Below, one piece after another: positions 98 to 37,951 of a stretch of 39,161 nt of DNA. Numbering within the stretch: position 1 is the first letter of the stretch; the number at the start of each line of letters is the position of its first letter. The DNA lies in contig JBDRLB010000040.1 in assembly GCA_043813365.1 (NCBI GenBank), positions 1-39,161 of the forward strand, written 5' to 3'. The notes under the pieces were generated by a model that worked only from the letters and a program-made list of their open reading frames with translations, was not told the origin of the DNA and made no database searches. Made by a program: the position numbers and the translations under genes. The DNA comes from Candidatus Micrarchaeota archaeon. Lineage in GTDB: Archaea; Micrarchaeota; Micrarchaeia; Norongarragalinales; SBBD01.

Positions 98-239
98 TGC
101 CTTGCCCCTTTCTTTATAAAAGAAAGCGGCGGTGGCTCCGCTGGAAAGAAAATGTTTTGATCTGAAAAATCAAATTCGCTTTTCTTTTGCGGCGCCATAC
201 GCTTTTCTTTTCGTGGAAAAGAAAAGCAAGGCGTGAAAA
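98..239 (+). other. Non-canonical T-loop tRNA intron (59/60), 142 nt, palindromic
   Basis: Relaxed BHB: central helix TTCG (92-95)/TGAA (234-237), bulges AA|T (96-98) and AA|T (238-240), inner helix GCCTTGC (99-105)/GCAAGGC (226-232) with one extra G233; splicing gives T loop TTCGAAT. Confidence 0.87.
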
Positions 240-279
240 TCTCCCCCCCGGCGTTCAATGTTTCGTATAAGTGATCAAT

Positions 280-1218
280 ATGGGAGATTATGACGTGATA
301 ATCATCGGAGGCGGGCCGGCAGGGCTCACAGCAGGCATCTATTGCAGCAGGAAGAAGCTGAAGAATGCCATAATTACCGTTGACACCGGAGGCCAGACGA
401 ACCTCACGAACCACATCGAGAACTATCCTGGGACAGGCGCTTTGCCCGGCCCGGATCTGATGGAAAAATTCAAATCCGAGGCGGAGAAGTTCGGCGCGAA
501 AATAATTTACTCCCAGGTGAAAAAGGCGGAAAAAACAAATGACGGCAACTTCAATGTGATTGCTTCCGATGGGAAAACGTATTCCTCGAGAGCGCTCATC
601 CTATGCTTTGGTTCGCTCCCGAAAATGCTCGGCGTTCCCCGGGAGGACAAGTTCCTCGGAAGGGGCGTTTCCACCTGCACCACTTGTGATGCGCCGCTGT
701 TCAAGAATAAAATAACCGCAGTTGTGGGTGGAGGGAATTCGGCCGTGGAAGGTGCTTTGGAGCTCTCAACCATTGCAAGCAAGGTGTACCTGATCCATAG
801 GAGGAAGGAATTCCGCGCGGACCCGATAACAATCGAGAAGCTGAAGCAGAAAGGAAATGTGGAGCTCATACTGGATGCTGTTGTGGAAGAAATCGCAGGG
901 GAAAAGAACGTGAAATCCGTAAAATTGAAAATGAAGGACGGGAAGGCACGCGAAATCCCAATTGACGGGCTGTTCATTGAGATCGGTTATGAAGTAAAAA
1001 CGGACATAGTAAGGGAGCTGGTTAAAATCAACGAAAAGAATGAAATTATTATTGATGCCAACAACCGCACATCCGTTCCCGGAGTTTTCGCAGCGGGGGA
1101 TGTGACAACCGTTGCATTCAAGCAGACCGTCATATCGGCCGGGGAGGGCGCGAAGGCCGCATTGGAATGCTACAAATACCTTACGGGCGGGAAAATCGAT
1201 TCGGTTGATTGGACCTGA
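280..1218 (+). CDS. trxB: Thioredoxin-disulfide reductase
   Basis: GGGPAG FAD motif, CTTC active site in GVSTCTTCD, GGGNSA plus HRRKEFRA NADPH motif, TSVPGVFAAGD. ATG at 280 preferred over GTG at 271. Confidence 0.93.
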   Translation: MGDYDVIIIGGGPAGLTAGIYCSRKKLKNAIITVDTGGQTNLTNHIENYPGTGALPGPDLMEKFKSEAEKFGAKIIYSQVKKAEKTNDGNFNVIASDGKTYSSRALILCFGSLPKMLGVPREDKFLGRGVSTCTTCDAPLFKNKITAVVGGGNSAVEGALELSTIASKVYLIHRRKEFRADPITIEKLKQKGNVELILDAVVEEIAGEKNVKSVKLKMKDGKAREIPIDGLFIEIGYEVKTDIVRELVKINEKNEIIIDANNRTSVPGVFAAGDVTTVAFKQTVISAGEGAKAALECYKYLTGGKIDSVDWT

Positions 1219-1300
1219 ATTTAACATCCTTTTTAAACCCTTTTTTAATGTCCCACCAAACCGTTTATAACTGCCCCGAACCCTTAACCTAGCTGTCTTT

Positions 1301-1768
1301 ATGGACAATGAATCGCAGGAAATGTACCTGAGGACCATTTATGAGTTTGAGGAAGACGGAAAGTATGCGCGTGTGACCGATCTTTCCACCAAATTGAAAG
1401 TCGCTCCGGCGAGCGTAACCGAAATGGTCGGCAAGCTCGTAAAAAAGGGCTTGGTTAACCATAAGGCATATGGCGGCATAACCCTAACAAAAAAGGGGAA
1501 AAAAGGGGGAGAGCGCCTAATTCGGAAATTCCGGCTTTTAGGCTGCTTTTTGCGCGAATATCTGGGAATCACGAATTGCCTGCATGATGCATGCCGGCTG
1601 GAGCACGTATTCTCGGATGAAGCAGAATGCAGACTATGCGTCCTGATGGGCCATCCTACCAGATGCCCTAACGGCACGGTCATTCCGAAATGCAACAGCT
1701 CCCGGCCCTGCAGCGAGTGCATGAGGATAATGCGCAGGAAGATCCGACCACTTAAGAAAAAGAAGTAG
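1301..1768 (+). CDS. DtxR/MntR-family metal-dependent transcriptional regulator
   Basis: EMYLRTIY...ASVTEMV...ITLT...ACRLEH...HPTRCPNG pattern; Cys-rich basic tail. Confidence 0.88.
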   Translation: MDNESQEMYLRTIYEFEEDGKYARVTDLSTKLKVAPASVTEMVGKLVKKGLVNHKAYGGITLTKKGKKGGERLIRKFRLLGCFLREYLGITNCLHDACRLEHVFSDEAECRLCVLMGHPTRCPNGTVIPKCNSSRPCSECMRIMRRKIRPLKKKK

Positions 1769-1800
1769 CTTTTTTTATTTGCAATTGTGAAAGTGCTCCC

Positions 1801-2523
1801 TCATCCCATTATTTTTAGCATAAGCAAAAGGAAGGGCTGATGCAAAAGGTAAATTATAAGCGTATGCCTGCCGAGGAAAAAGATCGGTTTGATTGCATCC
1901 CTAACCGGACCCAATAAGCCTACTGGTTTCCTTCCGGCAAACACGCTTTTCCCAACTGTCATTCCCAGCAAAAACACCCCGAACCAGGGCAAAATCGGGA
2001 AATAATCGAATGTGTACCAGCCGGCCGGCCAGAAACCCAGCCAGAGGAGGTATGCGAATTCGAATGTAAACTGCTGTAGCCATAAACCAATGGTAATCAA
2101 CGATGCCGAAAGGGCCAAAATCATTCTAGAGCTAATTTTCCTTTTCAAAATTGGAATTGCCAACAATGTCGCGATGCCGATGAGGTGCAGCACGCCGAAC
2201 CAGATTGTCGCTTTAGGTTCATAGAGCCAGGTGGTGATGGTAATCGTGATCCCCAGCGCAAATATTCCCAAACCCCTTGATAGGTATTTGTTGCGGATGA
2301 ATTTTCCAGTTTTATTCGCGTTCCGGGAATACGAAATGGAAAGTGAAACTCCCGCTATTGATACGAATGCGATCGCAACCAGCCTCCCGAGCCACCAAAG
2401 CAGCCCCTCATTCACTGGGAATTCTGCCGTCCCCAAATAATCGAGCGCGAACATCCAGTTGAACGCTACCATTCCAACTACTGAAAGTCCCCGGAAGAAA
2501 TCGATTTCCCAAAATCTGCCCAT
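1801..2523 (-). CDS. DUF1624 / heparan-alpha-glucosaminide N-acetyltransferase-like membrane protein
   Basis: RFWEIDFFRG, FGVLHLIG, DYFPILPWFG, GRHTLIIYLLHQP motifs; multiple TM segments. Confidence 0.85.
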   Translation of the reverse strand: MGRFWEIDFFRGLSVVGMVAFNWMFALDYLGTAEFPVNEGLLWWLGRLVAIAFVSIAGVSLSISYSRNANKTGKFIRNKYLSRGLGIFALGITITITTWLYEPKATIWFGVLHLIGIATLLAIPILKRKISSRMILALSASLITIGLWLQQFTFEFAYLLWLGFWPAGWYTFDYFPILPWFGVFLLGMTVGKSVFAGRKPVGLLGPVRDAIKPIFFLGRHTLIIYLLHQPFLLLMLKIMG

Positions 2524-2590
2524 GGTAAGGTTGGAACGCAGAAATTTTTAAGGCGGGCGCTTTCGACGTGCAATTATGCTAATCGCCGGG

Positions 2591-3805
2591 CTACTGCTGC
2601 AGCGTTATTTCCGCCGTTGCGTTAGCCCTGATGTCGAAGTATTTCGCCCCATCAGGAAGCAGGCCTATGTTGGTGAAAACGAACCAGCCGTCATCAGCGA
2701 AAAACCCGATTTTCCTGTAATTCTGCATGAACACCGGGTATTCCTTGATTTCAGGCGAGAGCAGGAACGTCGGCGCCCAAGAGAGATTGTACATATTGGT
2801 GATATTCATCCCGGGCTTCGAATCGAAATCGTAGTAATATGCGGAATCGGTGTATATTCCATTGCTGCTGATGAATTCCACATACCCGGTAGTGTTGAAG
2901 CACTCGGGGCACCTCTCGCCTCCCTTGATGTAAATCGCAGAAACCAGGCCCTTGATTTCGCCGGTTTTTAAATCACGATAAGGCGGATTGATCCCCCTAA
3001 GCACATAATTGCCATCGTTTTCCAAAGTGCCCATTTTTTCCAGCTCGGATGTGAGGTTTTCCCCGTAAATTGCAATGTCCTTGGAAACGATTATCGCAGG
3101 AAGCCTCTGGATGCCATATTTCTCAATGAGATCCTTGCCCTCGGTCCCATTGGAATCGATAATTTTTTCTTCCGTTATGGCAACCCCCCAAACCTCATTC
3201 AGGAATTGGCCCAGCACCGTTACGTTGTATATCATGTACGGGGAGAAATCTATTGACGCTTTGCCGCATTCCTCGCAGCTGGAATCTATGACCGTGCTGA
3301 TCTTCACCCTCCCGACAATTTCCTTGTTGTTTAGGAGGTCCATGTAAGGCGGCGCGATGTCTACAAGCAGCCATTTCCCATCAAAATTCTTGCCCGCTTT
3401 GAGCAGGAGGTCCTCCAATTCGGGCATCTTCGAGATTTCGCCTGAAATGAGCATTGTGGGAACCTTGGTGATGTTGTACTTCTGGATAAGGTCCTTACCT
3501 TCCTGCGAATCATATGAGTATTTCTGAATATTGAGCTCCCCACCCATCTGCTGGATCACGAAAGCGATCGCGTCAATATTGAAGCAGTCCTCGCATTCGG
3601 GAACGGTAATTCCGGTCAAGTCGAGGTTGATTTTCGGCATTTCCGTTGAAGTGGGCGTCGGGGTCACAGTTGAAACCTGCACGCTCGGTGTGCTTCCAGA
3701 TTGGTACTGATTCTGTATGTTTTGGACGACCAGAAATGCCCCCCATAACACCGCAATTATAAGTATGACGATGACCAGCTTCTGGAAAATGCCCTTGAAT
3801 TCCAT
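2591..3805 (-). CDS. Membrane-anchored protein with three thioredoxin-like CxxC repeats
   Basis: N-terminal TM helix, Thr/Pro linker, three units with CEDC, CEEC, CPEC, each followed by a G(K/M)xxxxxYxxxxxP-hydrophobic motif. Confidence 0.7.
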   Translation of the reverse strand: MEFKGIFQKLVIVILIIAVLWGAFLVVQNIQNQYQSGSTPSVQVSTVTPTPTSTEMPKINLDLTGITVPECEDCFNIDAIAFVIQQMGGELNIQKYSYDSQEGKDLIQKYNITKVPTMLISGEISKMPELEDLLLKAGKNFDGKWLLVDIAPPYMDLLNNKEIVGRVKISTVIDSSCEECGKASIDFSPYMIYNVTVLGQFLNEVWGVAITEEKIIDSNGTEGKDLIEKYGIQRLPAIIVSKDIAIYGENLTSELEKMGTLENDGNYVLRGINPPYRDLKTGEIKGLVSAIYIKGGERCPECFNTTGYVEFISSNGIYTDSAYYYDFDSKPGMNITNMYNLSWAPTFLLSPEIKEYPVFMQNYRKIGFFADDGWFVFTNIGLLPDGAKYFDIRANATAEITLQQ

Positions 3806-3884
3806 CTTCTCACCCTCTTGAAATAGCTAAGAATATCCAATGTTAAGTTTTTAAACGCAACCAAATTCTTATTAGCCGGTAGTG

Positions 3885-4295
3885 ATGAACGAGGAAGGCG
3901 CCATCCGGAAAATACTGATGGATTACCGGAGGGTTGCTGTCGTGGGGATCTCGGATGAAAGCGATAAAGCAGGTTATTTCGTCCCCGCCTACCTTAAAGA
4001 AAACGGCTATGAGATAATCCCCGTTAACCCCAAATCGGTTGAGTGGAAGGGAAAATACTCCTATGAATCGCTTGAAAAGGTTCCCATTGCAATTGACGTG
4101 GTGCTGATTTTCCGGAAGCCCGAATTTGTCCCGGACATCGTAGCAAGCGCCGTGAAAATCCATGCGAAAGCGGTTTGGATGCAGGAGGGCATAATCCATG
4201 AGGAAGCCGCAAAGCTGGCAGAAGATTACGGATTATTGGTAGTGATGGACAGGTGCATGATGAAGGAGCACAAGAAACTTTACAATAGGCGTTGA
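3885..4295 (+). CDS. CoA-binding protein (YccU-like)
   Basis: VAVVGIS, IIPVNP, DVVLIFR, AVWMQEGI, VVMDRCM motifs. Confidence 0.92.
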   Translation: MNEEGAIRKILMDYRRVAVVGISDESDKAGYFVPAYLKENGYEIIPVNPKSVEWKGKYSYESLEKVPIAIDVVLIFRKPEFVPDIVASAVKIHAKAVWMQEGIIHEEAAKLAEDYGLLVVMDRCMMKEHKKLYNRR

Positions 4296-4323
4296 GGCCG
4301 AATCTTGTGCTATTTCCTTATTT

Positions 4324-5256
4324 TCATTTTGCGAGCTCCTCATCAATTATTCTGCTCAATTCATTGACGCTCGAAGGCCCGATTATCGGCCGGCCATTAA
4401 TGAAGAACGTGGGAGTTCCGTAAATCCCCTCGGCAACTCCCTCGCCGAAACTCTTTTCGATTTCCGTTTTGTATTTTCCGTCAATCAAGCATACGTTGAA
4501 ACTCCCTTCATTCAGTCCCAATTGCCTTGCCAGCTCCGTCAATGATGATATTCCGCCGCTCCTGACCTTTTCCTGATTGTCAAACAGCGCCTGATGGTAT
4601 TCCCAGAATTTCCCCTGGTCTGCCGCGCATTCGGCGGCTTCGCTGGATTCCATGCTGAAATTGTGCGAAGGAAGGGGGAACGGCTTGAACACGAATCGGA
4701 TCTTATCCCCGTATTTTTTCCTGATCTCCCCGACGTTGGGCTGCGCCTGCTTCGTATACGGGCAAGTATAGCAGCCGACCTCAATGAGCGTGATTTTAGC
4801 ATCAATGGGCCCGATAATATGGCTGCCCAGATCCGAGGGTGCCATTAATGTATTGTTGCTCAATCCCGGCACCAAGCATTCATTCTCATGCGGCTGATTG
4901 CTCCCGAGCGGATCGAAGATGCAGAAAGCGTTCGAGTCCGGGCCGTTGCAATTCCCGTAGAGCGCGTAATTGTACAACCCCTGAATGATGAAGAATGTTG
5001 AAATGAGGAAGAGCGCCACAAACAGCCAGGAAAGCAATTCGAAATATTTGTTCACATATTTTGTCAGAATGGGGGAAATTTTGAATGTTCTGGAAAGGAT
5101 TCCCCTCCTTAACCGGTCGTCCAAGCCGCCCTGGCACGGCTTCAGCTGCGCCATCCTGAATACGCACTCGAACGCCTCTTTTGCAAGCGAACGGTATTTT
5201 GCGCTGAAAATCCCCAGTACCCCGAATACCACCAACCCGATTATGCAAAGAACCAT
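4324..5256 (-). CDS. Membrane-anchored DsbA-family protein
   Basis: G-PIDAKITLIE, CPY, FPLPSH, AAECAADQGKFWEYH, GIYGTPTFFING; N-terminal TM segments. Confidence 0.85.
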   Translation of the reverse strand: MVLCIIGLVVFGVLGIFSAKYRSLAKEAFECVFRMAQLKPCQGGLDDRLRRGILSRTFKISPILTKYVNKYFELLSWLFVALFLISTFFIIQGLYNYALYGNCNGPDSNAFCIFDPLGSNQPHENECLVPGLSNNTLMAPSDLGSHIIGPIDAKITLIEVGCYTCPYTKQAQPNVGEIRKKYGDKIRFVFKPFPLPSHNFSMESSEAAECAADQGKFWEYHQALFDNQEKVRSGGISSLTELARQLGLNEGSFNVCLIDGKYKTEIEKSFGEGVAEGIYGTPTFFINGRPIIGPSSVNELSRIIDEELAK

Positions 5257-5368
5257 TCGACCACTCCCATAAATGTTTACTAACTATATAAAAAGCATAT
5301 CTTTTTCGTTCGCATTCGAACAAATATTCGGATAGTCGGATTTTGCCTTATTCCATTTTATTCCTAAA

Positions 5369-6121
5369 TCATATCGAATTGTTGATTGCCTTGATGTTCA
5401 TCCGCTCGTATTTTTCCAGGCTGGTTTTTTGCATTTGGGAGAGCTTCACTATGGGTGAACCCCAATGCATCGCGATCCAATCTCCCGGCTTTAGCTCATT
5501 CCCCAAATCCGCAATGTCGGTTTTCAGGGGAATTTCAATTTTCCTGTACCCCTTCCAAATGAATTTCCGCCTCCTCATGTCTATGGGCTCGAATTCAACT
5601 TGCGCGATTTTCGTGGGCATATCGTATGTCTCATCCTTGATATGGCGAACGATCCCGAAAGGCACCCTGCACTTGTCCGCATTCGCAATATTCCATGGAA
5701 CTTTACCGGTGATGAACCTGACATAGTAAACGTGGAAGGAGTGGTGCGGAACAATCCCATTCGGAAGGTATTTTGCCAATTTTGCCGCCTTATACTTGTT
5801 CATTTTCCCTTTTCCCGTAAGGTCTTCCAATATCATTGCCTGCATCATTTCCTTTGGGATATTTTCAAGCAGTCCGTTCCCCAGCCAATACGCTTCGCAA
5901 ACTTCGTAATCGAAGGGATCCATGCCGTTCGCATTTGCGATCAGCTTCAGGTACGGGTAATGGCCCTCGAATTTTGTTATGGCGTTCTGGAGCGCAATCG
6001 CATTGGCCCTGCTTTTATCCTTGAGGTAATCCGAGAATATTTTATGGAAATCATTCGGACCGCAATATTTAAGCCGGTTTGTCACGCTCCCGAACCTTGC
6101 GGCGAGCTCTACGCCTTCCAT
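5369..6121 (-). CDS. DUF6390-like protein (hydrogenase-locus associated)
   Basis: NRLKYCGP, FEGHYPYL, EAYWLGN, PHHSFHV, DKCRV, GDWIAMHWG motifs; overlaps the upstream EamA gene. Confidence 0.75.
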   Translation of the reverse strand: MEGVELAARFGSVTNRLKYCGPNDFHKIFSDYLKDKSRANAIALQNAITKFEGHYPYLKLIANANGMDPFDYEVCEAYWLGNGLLENIPKEMMQAMILEDLTGKGKMNKYKAAKLAKYLPNGIVPHHSFHVYYVRFITGKVPWNIANADKCRVPFGIVRHIKDETYDMPTKIAQVEFEPIDMRRRKFIWKGYRKIEIPLKTDIADLGNELKPGDWIAMHWGSPIVKLSQMQKTSLEKYERMNIKAINNSI

Positions 6122-7047
6122 TCAGATCCCCCCAAAATTTTCGATTTCAGCAGGCTGAAGGAGGAACCGAGCTGGGAAATTCCCACAATCGCCAATATGC
6201 CCGCTGTTATCAGCAGCAACCCGAATGCATCGGAAATTGAAGGCGCTTTCCCGAGGAACGTGTAATTTAGGAAAGCGGTAATGGGCCCTCCCAGTGTGAG
6301 TATTGCAGTTGCTGTAGTAGCCCTTGCATGCTTGAGCGCCGAATAGAATGTGGAAACGAACAGGAAAAGGAATGCCCCGCCTACGGCGACCAATCCGAAA
6401 TTGAGTGAAAATACAGTGCTAACCAGGGGAGCTTTGCCTGCAACCGTCAGGTACACTGCTATTGCAATAAGCCCGAAGGATAGCCTTCCGAAACCTACAA
6501 CTGCAGGGGAGATTCCCTTATTCTCCATCACCCACTTCGAAAGTACGTATTCGAATGCCCAAATGATTGTTGCGGCGAGTATCAGCAATTCACCCATTCC
6601 AATTGCAAATGCATCTGATTTCCCCAACAAAAACGCGTTCCCCACCAACACTATCCCCGCGCCAATAGCCGCGTTCCTCGAGGGCTTTTCCCTAAGGATC
6701 AGCATTGCGAAAATTGCGGAGAAAACGAACACCAGCCTATAGAGGAACGACCCCTTTATTGCAGGAATCATGCTCAGCCCCTGGAAAAACAGGAGGAATG
6801 GAATCCCTCCCCCAATGATCCCAATGAGAAGCAGCCATTTAAGCTGGCGAACCCCGAATCCAGCAAATATTTTCCTTTGATGCATAAATAACAAAGCGGC
6901 TCCCAGGAATGTTGCCGCGGCTGCATTTTTCAGGAATGTGAACGCGAACGGATCGAGCGAATTCACCGCACTGCCGCTTACAAAAACGGAAATCCCGCTG
7001 ATCAGCGCGGTAGCGAATGCAAATAAAATCCCTTTCTCCTCACCCAT
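6109..7047 (-). CDS. DMT/EamA-family transporter
   Basis: About 10 TM helices in two EamA halves; LILREK and GELLILAATIIWA motifs. Confidence 0.88.
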   Translation of the reverse strand: MGEEKGILFAFATALISGISVFVSGSAVNSLDPFAFTFLKNAAAATFLGAALLFMHQRKIFAGFGVRQLKWLLLIGIIGGGIPFLLFFQGLSMIPAIKGSFLYRLVFVFSAIFAMLILREKPSRNAAIGAGIVLVGNAFLLGKSDAFAIGMGELLILAATIIWAFEYVLSKWVMENKGISPAVVGFGRLSFGLIAIAVYLTVAGKAPLVSTVFSLNFGLVAVGGAFLFLFVSTFYSALKHARATTATAILTLGGPITAFLNYTFLGKAPSISDAFGLLLITAGILAIVGISQLGSSFSLLKSKILGGSEWKA

Positions 7048-7144
7048 AGTACCCCCCAGTTTTTGTTAATGCATCAACGTTAAAAAAGGCTTATGCCGTA
7101 TTTGCTCCATTATCTTTTCCGAATCAATTAAACGGTCGTTTTAA

Positions 7145-7633
7145 ATGGCGAAGAAACTCAAGGTGGGATTGTTTTCCTTCTCGTGCTGCGAGGACAGCTC
7201 GATATTGTTCCTGGAAATCCTCAACGAGCACTACAAGGAATGGCTTCCCCTTCTTGATTTCAGGTATGCGCGCGTGCTTAAGACGAAGAACGAGCTTTCC
7301 GACATTGATGTCGCGTTCGTGGAGGGCGCAATAGCAAACGAGCATGACCGGCAGAAGGTGCTTGAGATCCGGAAAAATTCCAAAAAAGTAGTTGCGATCG
7401 GCTCCTGCGCATGCACCGGCCTTCCTGCGGGGCAACGGAACACTTTCAATGAAAGCCAGAAAAAGGAAATCAAGTTCCTGGTGCAGAAATTCAACATGCT
7501 GGATAAAGTGCTTTCCATCCCGCAGGTGGTGCAGGTTGATGACCTCGTAGTAGGATGCCCAATGGATGAGCAGAAGTTCGTTGAAGTGCTGGGAAAATAC
7601 CTGAAGGAGTTTGGAGTGGATGGGAAAAATTGA
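7145..7633 (+). CDS. [NiFe]-hydrogenase small subunit, proximal-cluster domain only
   Basis: FSCCEDS, DVAFVEGAI, VVAIGSCACTG, GCP; only 162 aa; directly upstream of the large subunit. Confidence 0.82.
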   Translation: MAKKLKVGLFSFSCCEDSSILFLEILNEHYKEWLPLLDFRYARVLKTKNELSDIDVAFVEGAIANEHDRQKVLEIRKNSKKVVAIGSCACTGLPAGQRNTFNESQKKEIKFLVQKFNMLDKVLSIPQVVQVDDLVVGCPMDEQKFVEVLGKYLKEFGVDGKN

Positions 7634-7645
7634 AGTGGTTTTTGT

Positions 7646-29306: not shown

Positions 29307-29316
29307 TCATATTTAT

Positions 29317-29522
29317 GGCCGTTCCCGAGGTGCAAATGCGATCGCGGCAATTTCCTATCCGATTTTCAATTTCCGGAATTTGAGCAGCTAGCCTGTTTTC
29401 ATCTAATCTGGGTTGAACGTCGGTTTTAGGGACTTCCTCCGGAGGGGGAGCAATTCATGCCCCCATGGAATGGGGCATTCCAACTTCCGCCGCAATTGCA
29501 GTGCATGAGCCCGGGAACGGCC
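29317..29522 (+). ncRNA. Unidentified structured ncRNA candidate (about 206 nt, four-way junction)
   Basis: 11-bp terminal stem GGCCGTTCCCG/CGGGAACGGCC, nested stems and three arms with G-U pairs favouring the + strand; TTTAAA at 29288-29293 upstream; T-rich tract downstream. Confidence 0.65.
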
Positions 29523-29644
29523 TTTTCCTATTTCTTTTTCCGCAATGCTTGGGCAAGGCAAAACAACCTTTTTAAACGTTGATCGCTAGAATAATTCCCT
29601 CAAAATCTGATTCTTAAAGTCAGAAAGTTTAATGGTGTCCAGTT

Positions 29645-31831
29645 ATGGCGCGGAAAGAGAACATTGCGGATGAAGCACAGAAGATGATGTCCAACCGGGA
29701 AAATATCCGGAACATCGGGATTGTTGCACACGTAGACCACGGAAAGACCACGCTGAGCGACTCGCTTGTAGCGCTTGCAGGCCTGATCTCCCAAGAGCTT
29801 GCTGGAGAGCAAAGAGTTCTTGATTACGACGAGCAGGAGCAGGCGCGGGGGATTACCATCAAGGCCGCCAACATTTCAATCCCATATACCTATGAGGGTC
29901 AGCCCTACCTGATCAATCTCATTGATACGCCCGGCCACGTAGATTTCGGAGGCCATGTGACGAGGGCGATGCGTGCGGTTGACGGGGCAATAGTTGTCAT
30001 CGATTGCGTGGAAGGCATCATGCCCCAGACCGAAACCGTCCTTCGGCAGGCATTGAAAGAAAAGGTGAAGCCAGTTGTATTCATCAATAAAATAGACCGT
30101 TACATCAACGAGCTGAAATTGGATGCGGCGCAGATGCAGCAGCGCTTCCTGAAAATCATCACCGGCGTCAATAAGCTGATCACAACTTATGCCTCCGAGG
30201 AGTTCAAAACGGAGTGGCAAATCGAAGTTCCCAAGGGGAATGTGGCTTTCGGCACGGCTTTCAACAAATGGGCGATTTCCGGCAAGCAGATGAAAAAGGC
30301 AGGCATCACCTTCAAGGACATTTATCAGGCATGCGTCGAGGGCCAGCACAAGGACCTCCAGAAGAAAATCCCGCTTGGCCCCGTAATAATGGACATCATC
30401 ATCAATCACCTTCCCAACCCGCTGGTTGCGCAAAAATACCGTGTTCCAGTAATCTGGCATGGCGACCTGGATAGCGATTTAGGGAAGAGCATGACGAATG
30501 TGGATGCCGCAGGAAAGGCGTGCTTCATGGTAACTGCGATACAAATGGATCCCCATGCGGGAGAAGTGGCTGTAGGAAGGCTATATTCGGGCACGCTCCA
30601 CAAGGGAAGCGACCTATACCTTGCATCGCAATTCAAGAAGGAAAAGCTGCAGGGAGTGGCGGTTTACATGGGTCAAGACCGCGTAACGATCGATTCGGTG
30701 CCAGCTGGCAATATCGTGGCGCTTGTCGGGCTCAAGGAGGTCTATTCCGGGGAAACAGTTTCCGAGGATCAAGTCACGCCATTCGAGCAAATCAAGCATC
30801 ATTCCGTTCCTGTTGTCACGAAGAGCATCGAGGCGAAGAACCCCCGCGATCTAGTCAAGTTAGTTGAGGTCATGAAGAAACTAGGCAAGGAAGACCCTAC
30901 AATGAAGCTGGAGATCAACCAGGACACCGGTGAGCACCTCATTTCGGGCATGGGCGAGCTCCACCTCGAGATTATCGAGTATAAGATCAAGAACGAGAAT
31001 GGGGTTGACATAGTCACTTCGCCGCCAATAGTCGTTTACCAGGAGTCGGTTTTTGGCGAATCGCCCGAATTGGAAGGGAAATCGCCCAACAAGCACAACA
31101 AGTTCAAAATAGAGGTCAAGCCCGTTGAGAAATCCGTCATTGATGCTATTAACGACGGCACAATAGACGAGCACAAGAAGGTCAAGGAGCTAATAGAGCT
31201 CCTGATCAAAGCTGGCCTGCCCCGTGATGAGGCCAAATCCGTCATGTGCATACATAACGGCAATTTCTTCCTTGACATGACCAAAGGGGTGCAGTATTTG
31301 ACGGACATCAAGGAAACCATCATTACCGCATTTGAGGAGGCGATGAACCAGGGCCCGCTTGCGAAGGAGAAGTGCATAGGCGTCAAGGTAATACTTACGG
31401 ATGCTGCAATCCACGTTGACCCCGCTCACAGGGGGCCGGCACAGCTTTTCCCCGCCATTAAGCGGCCCATATACGCGGGTATGCTGATGGCCAAGGCAAC
31501 ATTGCTGGAGCCGAAGCAGAAATTGGTAGTCAATTCCCCCTCCGAATACCTAGGCAACATCACAACCAAAGTGCAGGGAAGGCGCGCAATCATCGAGAAC
31601 ATCGAGCAGGAGGGCGAAGTGGTCACGGTAACAGCAAAAATACCGGTTGCGGAGATGTTCGGCTTTGCGAATGAGATCCGCGGAGCCACCCAAGGGAGAG
31701 CTGCATGGTACTATGAATATGCCGGCTATGAGAAGCTCAACCCTGATATGCAGGCACGTGTGCAGGCACTGATCCGGAAGAGGAAGGGCGAGCCCGAAAC
31801 CGCTCCGACAGCGAAGGACTTCATGGAGTAA
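29645..31831 (+). CDS. fusA: Translation elongation factor aEF-2
   Basis: AHVDHGKTT, RGITI, DTPGHVDF, NKID, GMGELHLE, diphthamide loop DPAHRGPAQ. Confidence 0.98.
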   Translation: MARKENIADEAQKMMSNRENIRNIGIVAHVDHGKTTLSDSLVALAGLISQELAGEQRVLDYDEQEQARGITIKAANISIPYTYEGQPYLINLIDTPGHVDFGGHVTRAMRAVDGAIVVIDCVEGIMPQTETVLRQALKEKVKPVVFINKIDRYINELKLDAAQMQQRFLKIITGVNKLITTYASEEFKTEWQIEVPKGNVAFGTAFNKWAISGKQMKKAGITFKDIYQACVEGQHKDLQKKIPLGPVIMDIIINHLPNPLVAQKYRVPVIWHGDLDSDLGKSMTNVDAAGKACFMVTAIQMDPHAGEVAVGRLYSGTLHKGSDLYLASQFKKEKLQGVAVYMGQDRVTIDSVPAGNIVALVGLKEVYSGETVSEDQVTPFEQIKHHSVPVVTKSIEAKNPRDLVKLVEVMKKLGKEDPTMKLEINQDTGEHLISGMGELHLEIIEYKIKNENGVDIVTSPPIVVYQESVFGESPELEGKSPNKHNKFKIEVKPVEKSVIDAINDGTIDEHKKVKELIELLIKAGLPRDEAKSVMCIHNGNFFLDMTKGVQYLTDIKETIITAFEEAMNQGPLAKEKCIGVKVILTDAAIHVDPAHRGPAQLFPAIKRPIYAGMLMAKATLLEPKQKLVVNSPSEYLGNITTKVQGRRAIIENIEQEGEVVTVTAKIPVAEMFGFANEIRGATQGRAAWYYEYAGYEKLNPDMQARVQALIRKRKGEPETAPTAKDFME

Positions 31832-31846
31832 TGGATTATTTTACAA

Positions 31847-32413
31847 TTATTTTTTTTCCTCTAGTTTGACCTCCACCGGTTTCCTTTCGCCTTCAGCAGC
31901 TCCGAAATATTCCCTCGCAGGCATCCCCGCCAGACCGGCAATCACGTTCCAGGGGAATATTGCGATAGAGTTATTGTAATTCAGTGCAGTATCGTTATAG
32001 AAGGAGCGCGAATAAGCAATTCTCTCCTCAGCATCCGAAATCTCATCCTGCAAATGCAGGAAATTCTCATTTGCCTTCAATACGGGGTAATTTTCCGCGA
32101 CTGCTATAAGTGATTTTACGGATTTTTGCATCTGCTCGTTCGCGTTGAACTTTTCCCCGACTGTTTTAGCGCCTTCGAACATGCTCCTTGCTTTCGCGAT
32201 ATTTTCAAAAACGCTCCTCTCGAATTTCGCATAACCCTTTACGACTTCAACTAGATTCGGTATCAGATCATATCTCCTTTTCATCTGGATGTCAATCTGG
32301 CTCCACGAATCATGGCACCTCTCACGCAGTTGCACGAGCCGGTTGTACACGATTACGCAAGCGATTGCCAGCAAAACTAGCGATGCCCCGATTATTTGCA
32401 AAATGAAATCCAT
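31847..32413 (-). CDS. lemA: LemA family protein
   Basis: YNRLV, WSQIDIQMKRRYDLIPNLV, AENYPVLKANENF, RSFYND, FPWN. Confidence 0.93.
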   Translation of the reverse strand: MDFILQIIGASLVLLAIACVIVYNRLVQLRERCHDSWSQIDIQMKRRYDLIPNLVEVVKGYAKFERSVFENIAKARSMFEGAKTVGEKFNANEQMQKSVKSLIAVAENYPVLKANENFLHLQDEISDAEERIAYSRSFYNDTALNYNNSIAIFPWNVIAGLAGMPAREYFGAAEGERKPVEVKLEEKK

Positions 32414-32421
32414 TTTCAACC

Positions 32422-33159
32422 TCAATTCCCCATGATTGTTCCTAGCATTCCAAAGGGCGAAAATGAAAAGCTGAAAAATAACGCGCCCAAAATCATGAGC
32501 GCCCCGATTATCCCCAAAACATAACCTATTGCCGTATTGAGCTTGTCATCAGAGCGCATTTCCGCAATGAATTCCGTCTCCGTTTTCGTTGCAGCCGCAA
32601 TCGGCTCCGAAGCGCTCTTCTTCACGATGAGCCCTCCTTGGTCCTTGAAAACCATCCCATACACGAATGCTTTCTCAACAGGTATCGCGTACTCCCTCTT
32701 CCTCATGTGAAAACCTTCCGAACTATGCACCTTCACTCCCCTGATAAGATCCTGTTCTGCCCCATTCAGGTCAACACAGATTGATCCTGTTGGATCAACT
32801 AGCTGGAATTCAGCTGTTCTCACAATATCCTCGACCGTTTGCCAGTATCCGTGCTTCCTCCCCTTTGAATCCGTCTCCTCATGGTATTCCTCCGTGATGC
32901 TGTGTGACCAAACGCACTGGGAACCGCTGTATGGAGCGATCGCGGGCTTATTGCATACAATTTTGGAAAACGTTTTCACCGGTACCCCGTCAATCGCATC
33001 GTGGAGGTCAGTCGGGGGAAGCCTTTGGATTTTGTAGAGCGCCTTATCTTCATCCTTCGTTTTTTTCAGGATGAACCAGCCTACAGCAAGGAAAACCAAT
33101 CCCATTAAACCCAGAATCATCCTTGCTTCGGAAAAGAAACTGCCAATCGGATCCGCCAT
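32422..33159 (-). CDS. GIDE-domain membrane protein (paralog 3)
   Basis: TM - P(T)DLHDA...CVW...EEY...WQTV...F.LVDPTGSI.VDL.GA...KREY - TM; stop abuts lemA. Confidence 0.72.
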   Translation of the reverse strand: MADPIGSFFSEARMILGLMGLVFLAVGWFILKKTKDEDKALYKIQRLPPTDLHDAIDGVPVKTFSKIVCNKPAIAPYSGSQCVWSHSITEEYHEETDSKGRKHGYWQTVEDIVRTAEFQLVDPTGSICVDLNGAEQDLIRGVKVHSSEGFHMRKREYAIPVEKAFVYGMVFKDQGGLIVKKSASEPIAAATKTETEFIAEMRSDDKLNTAIGYVLGIIGALMILGALFFSFSFSPFGMLGTIMGN

Positions 33160-33208
33160 AATAAAACCATATTAGGAAAATCAATAACCCTTAATTAAGC
33201 CGCATTAT

Positions 33209-33898
33209 TCATTTCGCCAGCCACATCATTATACCGCTTCCAATCAGCAACCCGATTCCCAGGATTGCGCCCGCAATGATCTGCATCTTGTCGTCTCCGC
33301 ACATGTGCCTTATGAACTCTTTTTCCGTCCGGTAACTCGCTATTAGCGGCTCGATCTCATCCTTCGCAATAACAAGGCCGGCGGCATTCTTCCTGCTTTT
33401 TCCAAGCACGAAAATCCCGCTGTCGGGCCTAATTATCCACTCCCTTTTCCTCACCTTCCTTCCCATCTTCAATCCGAGGAAATCCGTGACGTTTTCAAGC
33501 CCCTCCTACCTTAAAACGTCCTCAGGGTCTATCCAATTCTTATCTGCGCCATTCAAGTCGACATTGATCCAGCCTGTCGCATCCCTCACCTCGAACGGAA
33601 TGGTCACAATCTTGTCCAGCACTGTAATCCACCTGCTGCTTTTCCCCTGCTTGCGGTATTCCTCCTTAAATGAATGGTAGTAAACGCACTCCCTATTGGC
33701 GAGTTCGGAAACCACCGTATTGATGGGCTCCACCTTCCCTGAAATTTTCATCAGCACGTTCTCAGTCGCATCCTCTAGCTCAGTTGGCGGCTGCCTTTCC
33801 AGCTTATACAATAACTCATCCTCCCCTTTCTGCGCCATTATTGCCGCAACTCCTAATGCAGTAAGGACGAACCCCAGCAAGATGTATTCGAATACCAT
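33209..33898 (-). pseudogene. GIDE-domain membrane protein (paralog 2) with one in-frame TAG at 33506-33508
   Basis: ORFs 33506-33898 and 33209-33472 are in one frame; readthrough gives DVLR*EGLENVTDFLGLKMGRKVRKREW, aligning with paralog QVLNWEG...RKREW. Confidence 0.78.
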
Positions 33899-33957
33899 GA
33901 AAAGGTTAATCTCCGGGGGTATAAATAGTTTTCAAAATCAGGAAAGCCACCAGTGAA

Positions 33958-34800
33958 TCAAATGCCCTTCCACCAACCAAGGACGAGTGAAATGTATATA
34001 CCGAACATGGCAATGCCACCTATTGCAGCAAGGTAGCCGAGTGCCATCTGCGTCTTGTCATCGCTTCTTTTCCCTTTCAGGTAATCCGCTTCGGTTTTTA
34101 TGCTCGCGACGAGCTTAACCCTCTGGTCCGGCTGCAGAGTCAAGCCTTCCGGCTCCTTTTTGGCCATTCCGTAGAGGAATAATTGCGAATCCGGCCGGAG
34201 TATCCATTCCCTTTTCCTTGCACGCACCGACCCAAGCCTGATTCCGCCGATTATTTCAACCCCGCTTTTATTGCCCTCCCAATTGAGCACTTGCTCGAAT
34301 TCCGAGTTGTTCATTTCGGCCTCATTCTGGCTAGCCAATAGCTGTTGCGGAGGGATGCTCTTCGAAACTTCCACCATCCTTCCCATCATCGCAATTGGAT
34401 TGGCCGGCGCATTTGTCATGCGCAAGGCATCGAGAATTTTCCTTTTTGCAGGCCCGAGCAAATCAACCCTTATTTTCCCGGTGCCGTCATCCAAATAAAA
34501 CGGCTCAAAGCCGTAATCATAGAATACGGTAACCCACTTGCTGCTTTTCCCCTGCTTGCGGTATTCCTCCTCCGTGCTAAGGAAGTAGACGCAATCCTGC
34601 TTCTGGTAATATGATTTGAGCAGTTTGATGGGTGCAATTTTTCCCCTCGCTTTGATTACTACGTCCGCAACCGCATCCTCCAATTCGATGGGAGGGAGCC
34701 TCTCTATTTTATAGAGCTCCTCATCTTCCTTGCGCTGGTTGTTGATCATCACGAGGCCAATACCAAGCCCGATTATGCCGAAAAGAAGAATTTGCCACAT
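33958..34800 (-). CDS. GIDE-domain membrane protein (paralog 1)
   Basis: TM - LYKIERLPP.ELEDA...DCVYF...EEYRKQGKSSKWVTV...PFYLDDGTGKIRVD...RKREWILRPD - TM. Confidence 0.75.
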   Translation of the reverse strand: MWQILLFGIIGLGIGLVMINNQRKEDEELYKIERLPPIELEDAVADVVIKARGKIAPIKLLKSYYQKQDCVYFLSTEEEYRKQGKSSKWVTVFYDYGFEPFYLDDGTGKIRVDLLGPAKRKILDALRMTNAPANPIAMMGRMVEVSKSIPPQQLLASQNEAEMNNSEFEQVLNWEGNKSGVEIIGGIRLGSVRARKREWILRPDSQLFLYGMAKKEPEGLTLQPDQRVKLVASIKTEADYLKGKRSDDKTQMALGYLAAIGGIAMFGIYISLVLGWWKGI

Positions 34801-34873
34801 AGCATAAGGAAATCATTAGAGGTTTATAAACAATTATTATCGGTTGCATTTTATTGCAAAATCAGGAAAAGCA

Positions 34874-35179
34874 TCAGCCCAAATTCATCTCAAGCAGGAC
34901 GGATTTCGGGATTTCCATCCTCATTATGTCGCGGAGCACGCGGTCATCCGCCTTTATCTCTATAAGGCGCTTATGGATCCGGAGCTGCCATTTTTCATAC
35001 GTGTCGGAGCCGTCGCCGCAGGGCGTTTTCCTAGTTGTTAGAGAGAGTTTTTTTGTAGGCAGGGGGATTGGCCCCCTGAACTCGACTCCGGCCTTCTTTG
35101 CAATATCCCTTATCTGGCCGCATACGCCATCAAGGTCCGCATAGCTCTGCGATTCCAGCTTGATCCTTGCCTTATTCAT
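34874..35179 (-). CDS. rpsJ: 30S ribosomal protein uS10
   Basis: KARIKL, GPIPLPTK, TRKTPCGDGSDTYEKWQLRIHKRLI. ATG at 35179. Confidence 0.97.
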   Translation of the reverse strand: MNKARIKLESQSYADLDGVCGQIRDIAKKAGVEFRGPIPLPTKKLSLTTRKTPCGDGSDTYEKWQLRIHKRLIEIKADDRVLRDIMRMEIPKSVLLEMNLG

Positions 35180-35323
35180 AAATTTCCACTTTGCTATGAA
35201 TACCAATTGGGAAACGAATCCCGCATATTCCAAAACTATCCATTCCAAACAAATCGCGAGTTGCCTCGCAATGCCTTCTCTCACATGAAAAAATTTAAAA
35301 AAACCAAAAAATTGCGATGAGGT

Positions 35324-36616
35324 TCACGCCACAGCCTTCCTTGGCACGACGTCCAATACGACGCCCGCTGCAACGGTCTGGCCCATATCCCTGATTGCAA
35401 ACCTTCCCAACGCCGGGTATTCCGAGTATTTCTCCACTACGGTTGCCTTGGTGGGCTTGACCTTCACGATCGCGACGTCACCCGTCTTGATGAAGTCAGG
35501 ATTCTTCTGGGCTGTTTGGCCAGTTTTGGGGTCCTTTTTCTCCAAAATTTCAGTTATCTGGCATGCGACCTGCGATGTGTGCAGGTGGAATACCGGAGTA
35601 TAATTCTTCCCGATTGCAGTCGGGTGGTTGAGGACGACGATTTGTGCGGTAAATTCTTCCGCAACCATTGGCGGATTTTTTGGGTCGCCAACAACCGAAC
35701 CCCTCTTTATCGCTTTCTTTTCAACGCCCTTCAGTGCGAAGCCTATGTTGTCCCCCGGAATTGCCTGTGCAAGCGATTGGTGGTGCATCTCGATGCTCTT
35801 TACCTCTGCAGTGACGTTCTCTGGCATTATCACAACGCTCATATTCGGCCTCAGGATTCCGCTTTCCACTCTTCCAACTGGAACGGTTCCTTGGCCGGTG
35901 ATGGTCAATACTTCCTGTATCGGAAGCCTCAGCGGCTTGTCCGTTGCCTTCTTTGGCTCGACTAACAAATCAAGAGCTTCCTTGAATGTGGGGCCGGAAT
36001 ACCATTCCATGTTGTTCTTCTTGTCCTTGCCTTCCCTCTGGCCGACATTGTCTCCCATATAGGCCGAAACCGGGATCACGGGTATTTTGTCAATTGGGTA
36101 TCCCATCGGCCGGATCTTGTCTACGAGCGCTTTTTTCACTTCCTCGTATTTCACGCGGTTGTAATCAACTGCATCCATCTTGTTGATCGCAATGATGAAC
36201 TGCGACACTCCAAGCACCTTCAAAAGGAATGCGTGCTCAATAGTCTGTGCCTGCACTCCCTCTTTCGCGGAGCAAACCAGCACTGCCGCATCAGCCTGCG
36301 ATGCTCCTGTAATCATGTTCTTTACGAAGTCCTTGTGTCCTGGTGCATCGATGATCGTGAAGTAGAATTTCTGCGTGTGGAAGTCGCGGTGGGCGATGTC
36401 AATTGTGACTCCCCTTTCCCTTTCCTCCTTCAGCTGGTCCATTGCGAATGCGAACTCGAAAGTCGCCTTCCCTACTTTTGCAGCCTCCTCCTTCAGTTTC
36501 CTGAGGTCGTTCTCCGTAAGTGCTCCGGTGTCGTACAATACCCTTCCCACAAGGGTGCTCTTCCCATGGTCCACGTGGCCGGTGAAGATCAAATTCAAGT
36601 GAGGTTTTTCTGCCAT
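35324..36616 (-). CDS. tuf: Translation elongation factor aEF-1alpha
   Basis: MAEKPHLN, GHVDHGKST, ERERGVTI, DAPGHKDFVKNMITGASQAD, NKMD, GRFAIRDMGQT. Confidence 0.98.
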   Translation of the reverse strand: MAEKPHLNLIFTGHVDHGKSTLVGRVLYDTGALTENDLRKLKEEAAKVGKATFEFAFAMDQLKEERERGVTIDIAHRDFHTQKFYFTIIDAPGHKDFVKNMITGASQADAAVLVCSAKEGVQAQTIEHAFLLKVLGVSQFIIAINKMDAVDYNRVKYEEVKKALVDKIRPMGYPIDKIPVIPVSAYMGDNVGQREGKDKKNNMEWYSGPTFKEALDLLVEPKKATDKPLRLPIQEVLTITGQGTVPVGRVESGILRPNMSVVIMPENVTAEVKSIEMHHQSLAQAIPGDNIGFALKGVEKKAIKRGSVVGDPKNPPMVAEEFTAQIVVLNHPTAIGKNYTPVFHLHTSQVACQITEILEKKDPKTGQTAQKNPDFIKTGDVAIVKVKPTKATVVEKYSEYPALGRFAIRDMGQTVAAGVVLDVVPRKAVA

Positions 36617-36888
36617 ATCTTCATACACCCGCAAATTGCTTTATTTCAAAAAATAAATATTTTTCCAGTTCCATGCCATACCGCAAGCTATTACTAGCTG
36701 TGCATTTCCCACAGAATCAGCCATGATGAGCCTCTCAGCTGAAAAGAACCATTTAAAGTACCGATTAATCTTTAAAAAGGTTGCGATTTCACCCCCCTCG
36801 TAAATGATGCTTGGCAAATCCCAATCAATATCAATAAATACTTATCCTCCAATTAAAAATAACCGTTCCTGATTATTAGGCGATAAAA

Positions 36889-37050
36889 ATGACCACTTAT
36901 TTCCCGAATGACGAGACAAGCTGGGCGCTTCTTGCGCTGATTTTGATATATGCAATGTTCAACAGCGGGGTGCAGTTCTCCCTGCCGGCAGTGGGCGCGA
37001 TGGTTTTCATCGGCTACATCATAATCGGCACTGCGCAGCAGCACCACTAA
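36889..37050 (+). CDS. Small two-helix membrane protein (53 aa)
   Basis: MTTYFPNDETSWALLALILIYAMFNSGVQFSLPAVGAMVFIGYIIIGTAQQHH*; AGGCGA upstream; stop overlaps the ribL stop. Not in the ORF track. Confidence 0.6.
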   Translation: MTTYFPNDETSWALLALILIYAMFNSGVQFSLPAVGAMVFIGYIIIGTAQQHH

Positions 37051-37475
37051 TTTTTCCTTATTTTCTTTTTCAACTTCGAGCTCTTGAACTGGTGCGGCTT
37101 GTACGCTTGCGCCCTCACTATTTTCTGAGGCCTGAATCCCTGTGCAACCAGCTGTTCCATCAGTTCTGCTGTTTTCATCGGCTGGTCGTACCCAAAAACT
37201 ATTATTTCCGGCTTATTGTCCAGAATGGGTTTAAGCGAATTTACTTTATCCCCCGGGATCACTTCATCCACTAGCGGCTCCTTTTGCACATGCGCCATCC
37301 TCTCCTTCTGGGAATACCATGGCTTCTTCCCCTTGAAATGCATTATCCGTGCATCGCTCGCAACAACAACAAGCAGCTTTGAATCCTTCCCGCCGATTTC
37401 CTTCGCCTGCCTGAAAAGCGACCGGTGGCCATCATGGATGACGTCGAATGCGCCGAATGTCATTACCTTTACCAT
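37047..37475 (-). CDS. ribL: Archaeal FAD synthetase / cytidylyltransferase family
   Basis: FGAFDVIHDGH (HxGH), VVVASD, KPEIIVFGYDQ, KSSKL. Confidence 0.75.
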   Translation of the reverse strand: MVKVMTFGAFDVIHDGHRSLFRQAKEIGGKDSKLLVVVASDARIMHFKGKKPWYSQKERMAHVQKEPLVDEVIPGDKVNSLKPILDNKPEIIVFGYDQPMKTAELMEQLVAQGFRPQKIVRAQAYKPHQFKSSKLKKKIRKN

Positions 37476-37529
37476 GCCATCACTCCAAAAATTAGAATTA
37501 GCAGTTTTTAGCCCTATCGTTTTGATGAA

Positions 37530-37682
37530 TCAGGGGCCTTCAAATCCGCATTCCTTGCAGCTGTATTTGTTCCCGTTTTCAGAGCAGCTCTTGCACCTTA
37601 CGATTTTGCCCTTGTCGCATTCCGGGCACGGGAATACGGTTGCCTCCTGCGCAATCCTTCCGCAGCTTGAACATGACCTCAT
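37530..37682 (-). CDS. Small zinc-finger protein (DUF1610 / HVO_2753 family)
   Basis: MRSCSSCG...FPCPECDKGKIVRCKSC...YSCKECGFEGP*; four CxxC pairs; AGGTGA RBS. Not in the ORF track. Confidence 0.9.
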   Translation of the reverse strand: MRSCSSCGRIAQEATVFPCPECDKGKIVRCKSCSENGNKYSCKECGFEGP

Positions 37683-37769
37683 TTTTTCTCACCTTATGAA
37701 TATTGGAGGCTATTTTTATCTAGATTCGTGTTTAAAAGGCATATCTCTGATAATATTACGTTTTTTAAC

Positions 37770-37951
37770 GGGCCCGTAGTATAACCTGGACAGAACGGAA
37801 GCTTGCGGAGCTTTAGATCTGGGTTCGAAATGCCTGGCACGCAATAAGGCAATATTTGATTGATAGGCAAATCAATATCCTTCTTTGGCGCGGAGCCATC
37901 GCACCTTTCTTCGGAAGAAAGGGGCAAGGCGCGGACATCCCGGCGGGCCCG
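37770..37951 (+). tRNA. tRNA-Arg(GCG) with a 108-nt T-loop intron (59/60)
   Basis: Acceptor GGGCCCG (37770-37776)/CGGGCCC (37944-37950) plus G; anticodon arm GAAGC-TT-GCG-GA-GCTTT; T stem CTGGG/CCCGG; exons 37770-37829 and 37938-37951 give 74 nt; TTTAAA upstream at 37731; oligo-T downstream. Confidence 0.95.
37830..37937 (+). other. Non-canonical T-loop tRNA intron (59/60), homologous to intron 98-239
   Basis: Strict BHB: GGG/CCC, central TTCG (37824-37827)/CGGA (37932-37935), bulges AA|A and CA|T, inner helix TGCCT/AGGCG. Confidence 0.92.

Follow-up and report, generated by a model that had tools for sequence, protein, structure and literature searches.

Two tRNA genes, both interrupted at the same unusual place by related inserts, lie near the two ends of contig JBDRLB010000040.1 (C40) of a Candidatus Micrarchaeota archaeon. 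The window analyzed here is the whole of that contig, 39,161 nucleotides; its genome, GCA_043813365.1 (1,335,696 bases in 78 contigs, 88.6% complete, 3% contamination, 49% G+C), is called G000, and its congeners G001 to G005. A manual parse of the letters places a tRNA-Ser(UGA) gene at 1-253 and a tRNA-Arg(GCG) gene at 37770-37951, and in both an intron occupies T-loop position 59/60, at the coordinates given in an initial annotation made from the sequence alone (Table 1). About 21 nt of the 5' end of tRNA-Ser(UGA), as judged from its orthologues, are cut off by the contig start, and the missing piece was not on any other G000 contig. We describe here the anatomy, relatives and predicted splicing of the two inserts, which are probably protein-spliced introns built from a small palindromic hairpin repeat, non-coding and multiplied within a single micrarchaeal lineage.

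Neither ARAGORN nor Rfam at gathering score called a tRNA within the window. Removal of the Arg insert in silico restored the cloverleaf, ARAGORN then reporting tRNA-Arg(gcg) (the accepted deletions include 108 nt), and the same procedure at other copies of the repeat yielded Asn(gtt), Arg(tct), Val(gac) and Met(cat). The Arg gene has in addition a partial RF00005 match (37776-37838, 19 bits), while tRNA-Ser was parsed by hand against its orthologues. Both junctions of the Arg intron are crossed, without difference, by unitigs from two other public DNA runs. Contigs built from four DNA runs likewise agree at the junctions, and no RNA run was listed as containing the stretch. In practice, since standard tRNA finders miss both window genes, annotation will under-count the tRNAs of such genomes. 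Across G000, ARAGORN reported 23 tRNA genes and RF00005 gave 18 matches above the cut-off, several of them mis-called; the output of the T-arm/acceptor scan and of the splice-site script was corrected by hand.

The two introns are homologous by sequence comparison, with a likeness far beyond chance. They have in common an exact 16-mer (99-114 against 37930-37915, reverse strand; blastn), for which our own arithmetic gives a chance expectation of about 7e-6 between sequences of such size, and Ser-intron positions 2-53 match 37881-37930 at 79% identity (blastn). The initial annotation had recognized this relationship and the motifs on which it turned, a TGCCT(T/G)GC start, a TTTGAT..ATCAA centre, a closing module and four nucleotides able to pair with TTCG, and all of these were recovered. 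A family profile (nhmmer) scores Arg 37930-37870 at E 2.2e-14 and the two Ser halves at 3.6e-17 and 1.7e-11.

Iteration of nhmmer from the Ser intron converged on a half-element of about 60 nt that consists, in order, of a terminus (T/C)GCCTTGCC, hairpin 1 (CCTTTCTT..AAGAAAGG), hairpin 2 (around GCG.TGGC.CCGC) and AAAGAAAA. The full element is a palindrome of about 130 nt in which two inverted halves are arranged about the TTTGAT..ATCAAA centre; the Ser intron is a full element, and the Arg intron comprises the right half, the centre and an 8-nt left terminus. At E<=0.01 there were 39 matches: 31 were strong (E<=4e-8), two were pieces of one interrupted copy, and the remainder were mostly palindromic self-matches. 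In total G000 holds 32 half-copies at 27 loci, so that the proposed multi-copy inverted-repeat family is real, and it recurs in all five congeners.

Judged from their flanks, 12 of the 27 loci are tRNA introns, 6 lie downstream of tRNA genes, within about 15-65 nt of them, and 9 are situated between protein-coding genes. Nine of the introns are in T-loops, those of Ser(UGA), Arg(GCG), Asn(GUU), Arg(UCU), Val(GAC), a Leu, Met(CAU), a probable Ser(GCU) and an unresolved tRNA on C26, and three are in the anticodon loops of Leu(UAA), Arg(CCU) and Thr(UGU); related introns are thus present in different tRNA species of one genome, 12 tRNA genes of G000 carrying the element. The tRNA genes with short flanks make up, by estimate, about 1% of the genome yet account for 18 of the 27 loci, a strong association. 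The T-loop TTCGAA, which had been proposed as the target, is not an exclusive one, since the anticodon loop houses 3 of the 12 intron copies and 15 of the 27 loci are not introns at all. All full two-armed copies seen lie within tRNA introns (5 in G000 and at least 7 in fetched loci of relatives).

Table 1. Features of the two tRNA genes and their introns in the window
Feature	Positions	Strand	Evidence and details
tRNA-Ser(UGA) 5' exon end	1..16	+	anticodon TGA 13-15; orthologues supply missing 5' end (GCCGGGGTGGCAGAGTGGTTA...)
tRNA-Ser(UGA) canonical 37/38 intron, 49 nt, no repeat copy	17..65	+	stem CCAGC 6-10 / GCTGG 67-71
tRNA-Ser middle exon	66..97	+	variable arm 72-86, T stem 87-91, T-loop TTCGAA 92-97
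tRNA-Ser(UGA) T-loop (59/60) intron, 142 nt, full palindromic element	98..239	+	blastn, nhmmer, fold
Ser intron left half-element: terminus GCCTTGCC, hairpin 1, hairpin 2, AAAGAAAA	99..162	+	nhmmer E 3.6e-17
Ser intron central hairpin TTTGAT..ATCAAA	155..175	+	paired in minimum-energy fold
Ser intron right half-element, inverted, end GCAAGGC	167..232	-	nhmmer E 1.7e-11
Ser adaptor TGAA, able to pair with TTCG 92-95 (central 4-bp helix)	234..237	+	constrained fold
tRNA-Ser 3' exon	240..253	+	T60, T stem 241-245, acceptor CCCCGGC 246-252, G73 at 253
tRNA-Arg(GCG) 5' exon, positions 1-59	37770..37829	+	anticodon 37805-37807, T stem strand 37819-37823, TTCGAA 37824-37829
tRNA-Arg(GCG) T-loop (59/60) intron, 108 nt	37830..37937	+	blastn, nhmmer, fold
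Arg intron eroded left arm: 8-nt terminus TGCCTGGC alone	37831-37838	+	manual parse
Arg intron centre	37855-37876	+	manual parse
Arg intron right half-element, intact	37870..37930	-	nhmmer E 2.2e-14
Arg adaptor CGGA, pairs with TTCG 37824-37827	37932..37935	+	minimum-energy fold; helix count
tRNA-Arg 3' exon	37938..37951	+	T60, T stem 37939-37943, acceptor 37944-37950, G73 at 37951

Predicted folds bear out the proposal that the ends of the element rebuild a bulge-helix-bulge motif. The T arm of Arg, folded together with its intron, has as minimum-energy structure an exact 3-4-3 helix-bulge-helix-bulge-helix, with the T stem as outer helix, TTCG/CGGA as central helix, bulges AAA and CAT, and the intron termini as inner helix. 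In the minimum-energy fold of Ser the inner helix is two pairs longer than in the strict motif, and the fold constrained to that motif (TTCG/TGAA) has an energy of -64.6 versus -67.1 kcal/mol; because it lies 2.5 kcal/mol above the minimum, the Ser motif is counted as relaxed. Among the 19 resolved T-loop introns that contain the element, a set compiled from G000 and relatives with the splice-site script and manual correction, four of four central pairs form in 13, three of four in 3, and one or none in the other 3. A broad-specificity host endonuclease had also been expected, and a single 388-aa open reading frame on C73, with two matches to the catalytic domain PF01974, is by homology of the epsilon2 type, matching the ARMAN-2 epsilon2 EndA (4FZ2) over its full length (E 2e-128). 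According to the accessible part of the report on that enzyme, it cuts strict and relaxed motifs in vitro, including a 59/60 intron (PMC3239211). By their predicted motif, then, both inserts would be bulge-helix-bulge tRNA introns and are presumably spliced. The two termini would pair to form the inner helix, the 4-nt adaptor just before the 3' splice site would pair with the T-loop TTCG or TTCA to form the central helix, and the T stem would serve as the outer helix; given this motif, an epsilon2-type endonuclease and a ligase could remove the insert, so that the gene would stay functional.

That the two loci are instead disrupted pseudogenes, with working genes elsewhere, has in its favor the incompleteness of the assembly and the truncation of tRNA-Ser at the contig start, but the exons are conserved with those of orthologues and the predicted splicing motif is in place. 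Intact intron-less second genes would have spoken for disruption, and a limited search of the 88.6%-complete assembly found no second Arg(GCG) or Ser(UGA) gene, nor a second anticodon stem-loop of either kind in a tRNA context; we regard this explanation as scarcely credible. An ARAGORN 'Ser(tga)' at C19:1974-2101, considered as a second Ser(UGA), was rejected, being a Val(CAC) gene with its own intron. This Val(CAC) gene (C19:1974-2100), Arg(UCU) (C62:22916-23086) and Lys(UUU) (C44:16843-16916) have the T-loops TCCGATT, TCCGAAT and TCCAAAT, respectively. All three have C at position 55, a tRNA position at which U is near-universal.

The element was matched in 17 of 40 related genomes, G000 included: in all five congeners, with 12-22 matches each, in eight of nine family genomes, and patchily in other families of the order. 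A cut-off of E<=1e-10 left matches in four of five family genomes; among the sampled members of 19 other families in the phylum there were none. A scan of 185,579 genomes for the exact 16-mer returned at least 113 stretches, which among the matches listed were mostly chance, bacterial ones, and the archaeal records among the exact-pattern matches listed bear Micrarchaeota or Norongarragalinales titles. In congeners the element resides in further tRNAs, namely Gly(UCC), Ala(UGC), Asn(GUU) and Arg(UCU), and the closest G002 relative of the Ser intron is located in tRNA-Gly(UCC), with 84% identity over its whole length. A metagenome scan with the gene downstream of tRNA-Ser yielded 80 loci (best amino-acid identity 61%) with no element, no ARAGORN tRNA and no strain-level filled/empty pair in the first 700 bases per locus, upstream flank included.

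The orthologous sites themselves differ from species to species. At tRNA-Arg(GCG), where G000 has its 108-nt element intron at 59/60, G001, G003 and G004 are intron-less with the T-loop TTCAAAT, and G002 and G005 (loci L148 and L154) have two T-arm introns, one of about 95 nt at 53/54 and one of 21 nt at 59/60. At the syntenic tRNA-Ser(UGA), which in G000 combines a canonical intron with the full palindrome at 59/60, G001 has no canonical intron and a 59/60 intron that is the right half alone, G002 has an intact T-loop with the 37/38 intron present, and G005 has an unrelated 41-nt insert at 59/60 together with the 37/38 intron. The empty orthologous sites that the initial annotation had called for are therefore found in three of five congeners for Arg and in one of three syntenic orthologues for Ser. 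In the 37/38 intron of Thr(UGU), G000 and G001 have retained opposite halves, as expected if a full palindrome eroded separately in each genome. Copies would be gained and lost on the time scale of species within a genus, and palindromes would erode to single halves. The pairing of introns at 53/54 and 59/60 has reportedly been described for ARMAN-2 tRNA-Pro(GGG), and the two positions are mirror images of each other about the palindromic TTCGAA.

Copies outside introns have a layout of their own. Direct repeats flank 12 of the 61 half-copies of G000 and the fetched relatives, and were matched as well by 0 of 24-25 control flanks; a thirteenth case (C2) is weaker. These repeats are imperfect and 19-46 nt long, and the order is repeat, 0-6 nt, the GCCTTGCC terminus, a half-element of 55-110 nt with or without a short spacer, and the repeat again. 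At tRNA-adjoining copies the orphan repeat is the segment from the T-loop to the 3' end of the tRNA plus 2-19 nt of trailer, with a single mirror case involving the 5' end (L173), and at C74, L172 and L178 the repeat copies non-tRNA DNA, which at C74 is the 3' end of a protein gene. Because this gene end is single and element-free in all five congeners, the G000 structure is derived. The gene end (C74:3791-3945) reads TGG TTT TGA in G000 versus TGG TT(T/C) TAG in the five congeners (L200-L204), a difference which indicates that the G000 stop codon was rebuilt at the element junction; a GCCTTGC remnant again follows the second repeat copy. A T-loop-like target motif occurs at 2 of about 10 non-tRNA copies of G000 (TTTTGAAT at C7 and C74), which is not significant, and its GAA at C74 is absent from all five orthologues. 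A half-element behind tRNA-Cys occupies the orthologous place in G000 (C3:200-300) and G002 (L169), so that this arrangement is older than the split of the two species; its orphan 3' copy, clear in G002, has decayed in G000. The solo-half layouts might conceivably be accounted for by a full palindrome broken near its centre, with repair copying the empty side before joining.

Two further explanations bear on these copies. The tRNA-adjoining ones could be att-site scars of plasmids or viruses that recombined in the T-loop, as in a model proposed for Caldiarchaeum (PMC4033280, in its accessible part), and in several of them an orphan duplicate of the segment from the T-loop to the 3' end follows, the pattern that integrases leave. 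Yet the duplicates are only 55-110 nt apart, with no integrase or element gene between them, the same type of duplicate flanks copies at the ends of protein genes (C74, L172 and L178), the tRNAs concerned are many and different, and the one tyrosine recombinase gene sits at a G000 contig end; we judge this origin very improbable. The related idea of an integrated element was rejected, since only housekeeping genes lie between the same-orientation copies on C70 and C47, which encode an Elp3-like radical SAM protein, an acetyltransferase, a thioredoxin, a PIN/MazE pair, a SpoU methylase and a MinD/ParA protein.

Alternatively, the module could be a selected functional RNA or DNA signal, such as a pre-tRNA protein platform or a gene 3'-end structure, rather than a selfish one. 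Both hairpins are indeed maintained, on comparative grounds, by compensatory changes (pairs CG 23 / TA 15 and CG 13 / GC 21) and by coordinated deletions, 2-nt double gaps affecting both strands in 26 copies versus one side in 2. Between genomes with coding DNA of about 70% identity, copies of the element are 80-93% identical, and in 6 of 10 intergenic or tRNA-distal loci, C44 among them, the terminus falls 0-3 nt past a stop codon, always in one orientation. Against such a function, presence and absence vary at orthologous sites, copies are eroded to halves, contain nested insertions and stand in both orientations relative to tRNAs, and Rfam families gave no match in the introns even at E<=1. 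A selected signal is, in our assessment, improbable.

The protein families searched in the 88.6%-complete assembly of G000 were TnpB, phage integrase, reverse transcriptase, Y1 transposase and EndA, and no transposase flanked by the same ends, as had been envisaged, was found among them between or beside element copies. The proposed likeness to a miniature inverted-repeat transposable element (MITE) holds for the terminal inverted repeats (GCCTTGCC / GGCAAGGC) and the copy number (27 loci) and fails for a fixed target-site duplication and an autonomous relative. DNA transposition is left without an enzyme, there being no TnpB and a Y1 transposase that appears unrelated, and reverse splicing has no reverse transcriptase in G000 to draw on; recombination between tRNA genes would have only about 8 nt of common flank to work with. 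Behind the element, the adaptor (R)TGAAAA recurs in five or more different tRNAs, and CGGACA is found in Arg and the probable Ser(GCU). Because adaptors are common to different tRNAs, the unit that moves between T-loops is the whole intron, adaptor included. We infer that the element moves as DNA.

Several points weigh against the reading of these inserts as introns made of a mobile, multiplying repeat. The assignment of copies to tRNA contexts was manual and the tRNA census is partial, and filled and empty states were compared without a species tree, so that gain and loss are not polarised. Comparison with orthologues shows no target-site duplication at the Arg and Ser intron sites, and without a fixed duplication the repeat is not a classical cut-and-paste element. 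TnpB and reverse transcriptase were not found in G000. Its only Y1 transposase is a single IS200-like gene (C8:44-562, 172 aa) whose end hairpins are unlike the element; the gene is present in 5 of 10 family genomes including G000 and, within the genus, in G000 and G003 and not in G001, G002, G004 or G005, so that with its other hairpins and its absence from four of five element-rich congeners it appears unrelated to the element. (It has a conserved structured leader, common to the copies in four other family genomes, and no TnpB partner in G000.) Finally, the 21-nt 59/60 intron of G005 tRNA-Arg(GCG) has the same first base as the G000 intron and the adaptor CGAACA versus CGGACA; with so similar a frame, the element may have entered an existing intron.

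This last point leads to a view in which the introns are older than the element and the repeat, able to insert at any tolerated site, is a passenger that collects there because introns are cut out of the RNA. The short 59/60 intron, shared by G002 and G005, matches G000 in first base and adaptor; of the 12 copies within introns, 3 occupy the canonical 37/38 position, an ancient site of introns in archaea; a second repeat family is nested in the hairpin-1 loop of four copies, so that hairpin loops do receive such repeats; and 15 of the 27 loci are not intronic. On the other side, 1-4 nt separate the termini of the element from the 5' splice site, the inner helix is made by these termini with no older intron stem around them, intron-less orthologues exist for both tRNAs, and deletion within element introns could just as well have produced the short ones. 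We give passenger status an appreciable chance, though one short of even. It is also possible, and we put it forward tentatively, that new non-canonical tRNA introns in Micrarchaeota originate through insertion of the palindromic element itself. The element would bring its own inner helix and the palindromic TTCGAA could pair with a copy of itself, so that, once inserted at 59/60 (or at 53/54, if on the other strand), the element could be excised at once by the broad-specificity epsilon2 endonuclease; the repeat-flanked solo halves would then be footprints of palindrome breakage and repair.

Other repeats keep company with the main element. The second family, a double hairpin of about 40-57 nt around GGCCCCG, has five copies in G000 (C9:5009-5065, C42:33953-34008, C50:12284-12321, C75:17996-18034 and C19:28386-28439), all of them nested in a TTTCTT..AAGAAA hairpin loop, in four cases that of hairpin 1 in the main element and in the fifth that of a related hairpin, and it is also found in relatives (L170, L179, L182 and L187). 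It looks like a parasite of a parasite that targets hairpin loops. A third hairpin family, CTTTTTCTTT-loop-AAAGAAAAAG followed a few bases further by AAAAGAAAG, has sites in G000 that include C3:83, C19:2018, C19:32659, C43:324, C46:39134, C65:5730, C76:18315, C7:19686 and C13:21267. It occupies other tRNA introns (Cys, Val(CAC) and the probable Ser(GCU)) and directly adjoins two tRNA genes on their upstream side; because some copies go on to carry the TTGATCTGCGAATCA centre of the main element, the families have modules in common.

Bacterial REP and REPIN sequences with their RAYT proteins are short extragenic palindromes that occur as inverted doublets, form long hairpins and are multi-copy, non-coding and often located behind genes. 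The G000 family is likewise multi-copy and non-coding, forms inverted doublets and often has copies behind genes, but no RAYT-like gene is flanked by the element, and the lone Y1 transposase is missing from most carriers; REPINs are not known to occur as tRNA introns. The MITEs of bacteria and archaea are small non-autonomous elements with terminal inverted repeats and many copies, from which the G000 element differs in having neither a target-site duplication of fixed length nor an autonomous relative with the same ends. In Caldiarchaeum a tRNA gene has been disrupted by an integrating element, its pieces being separated by a 1.8-kb recombinase-coding insert according to the accessible portions of the reports (PMC4033280; PMC3293823). 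Both cases have a tRNA fragment duplicated beside an intact or intron-bearing tRNA gene, whereas here the gap is a hairpin repeat of 55-110 nt only.

The closest precedents are tRNA introns themselves. In Thermoproteales related introns occur in different tRNAs, and their mechanism of spread is given as unknown in the available summaries of the work of Fujishima et al. (2010) (PMC4090602, PMC4033280), which mention no palindromic body or extra-tRNA copies; a re-analysis is contained in a preprint (10.64898/2026.10.13.758758). The genus of G000 resembles that case in having related introns across tRNAs, with presence and absence at orthologous sites as well, and differs in phylum (Micrarchaeota), in the epsilon2 endonuclease type, and in a palindromic body that also lives outside tRNA genes, behind tRNAs and stop codons, as halves with direct repeats. 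ARMAN-2 (Candidatus Micrarchaeum acidiphilum) belongs to the same phylum and has introns at 59/60 and 53/54 as well as the epsilon2 EndA of which the G000 enzyme is a full-length homologue, but the accessible part of its description reports no sequence family, repeat nature or extra-tRNA copies for those introns (PMC3239211). Nor did the full-text literature searched, which did not extend to the original 2010 Thermoproteales study and supplements, contain any account of a family of palindromic repeats in the tRNA introns of Micrarchaeota or of copies outside tRNAs. How archaeal tRNA introns reach new positions is the open question addressed here, and for Asgard archaea the same 2026 preprint identified no general arrival route. 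The present lineage is a tractable case, with a recognisable repeat body, filled and empty sites, extra-tRNA copies with duplications and a purifiable type of endonuclease, and origin by insertion, if true, would give archaeal tRNA introns their first concrete mechanism of arrival. The spread of related tRNA introns between genes is known already; what appears new here is their REPIN- or MITE-like palindromic body, which also lives outside tRNA genes.

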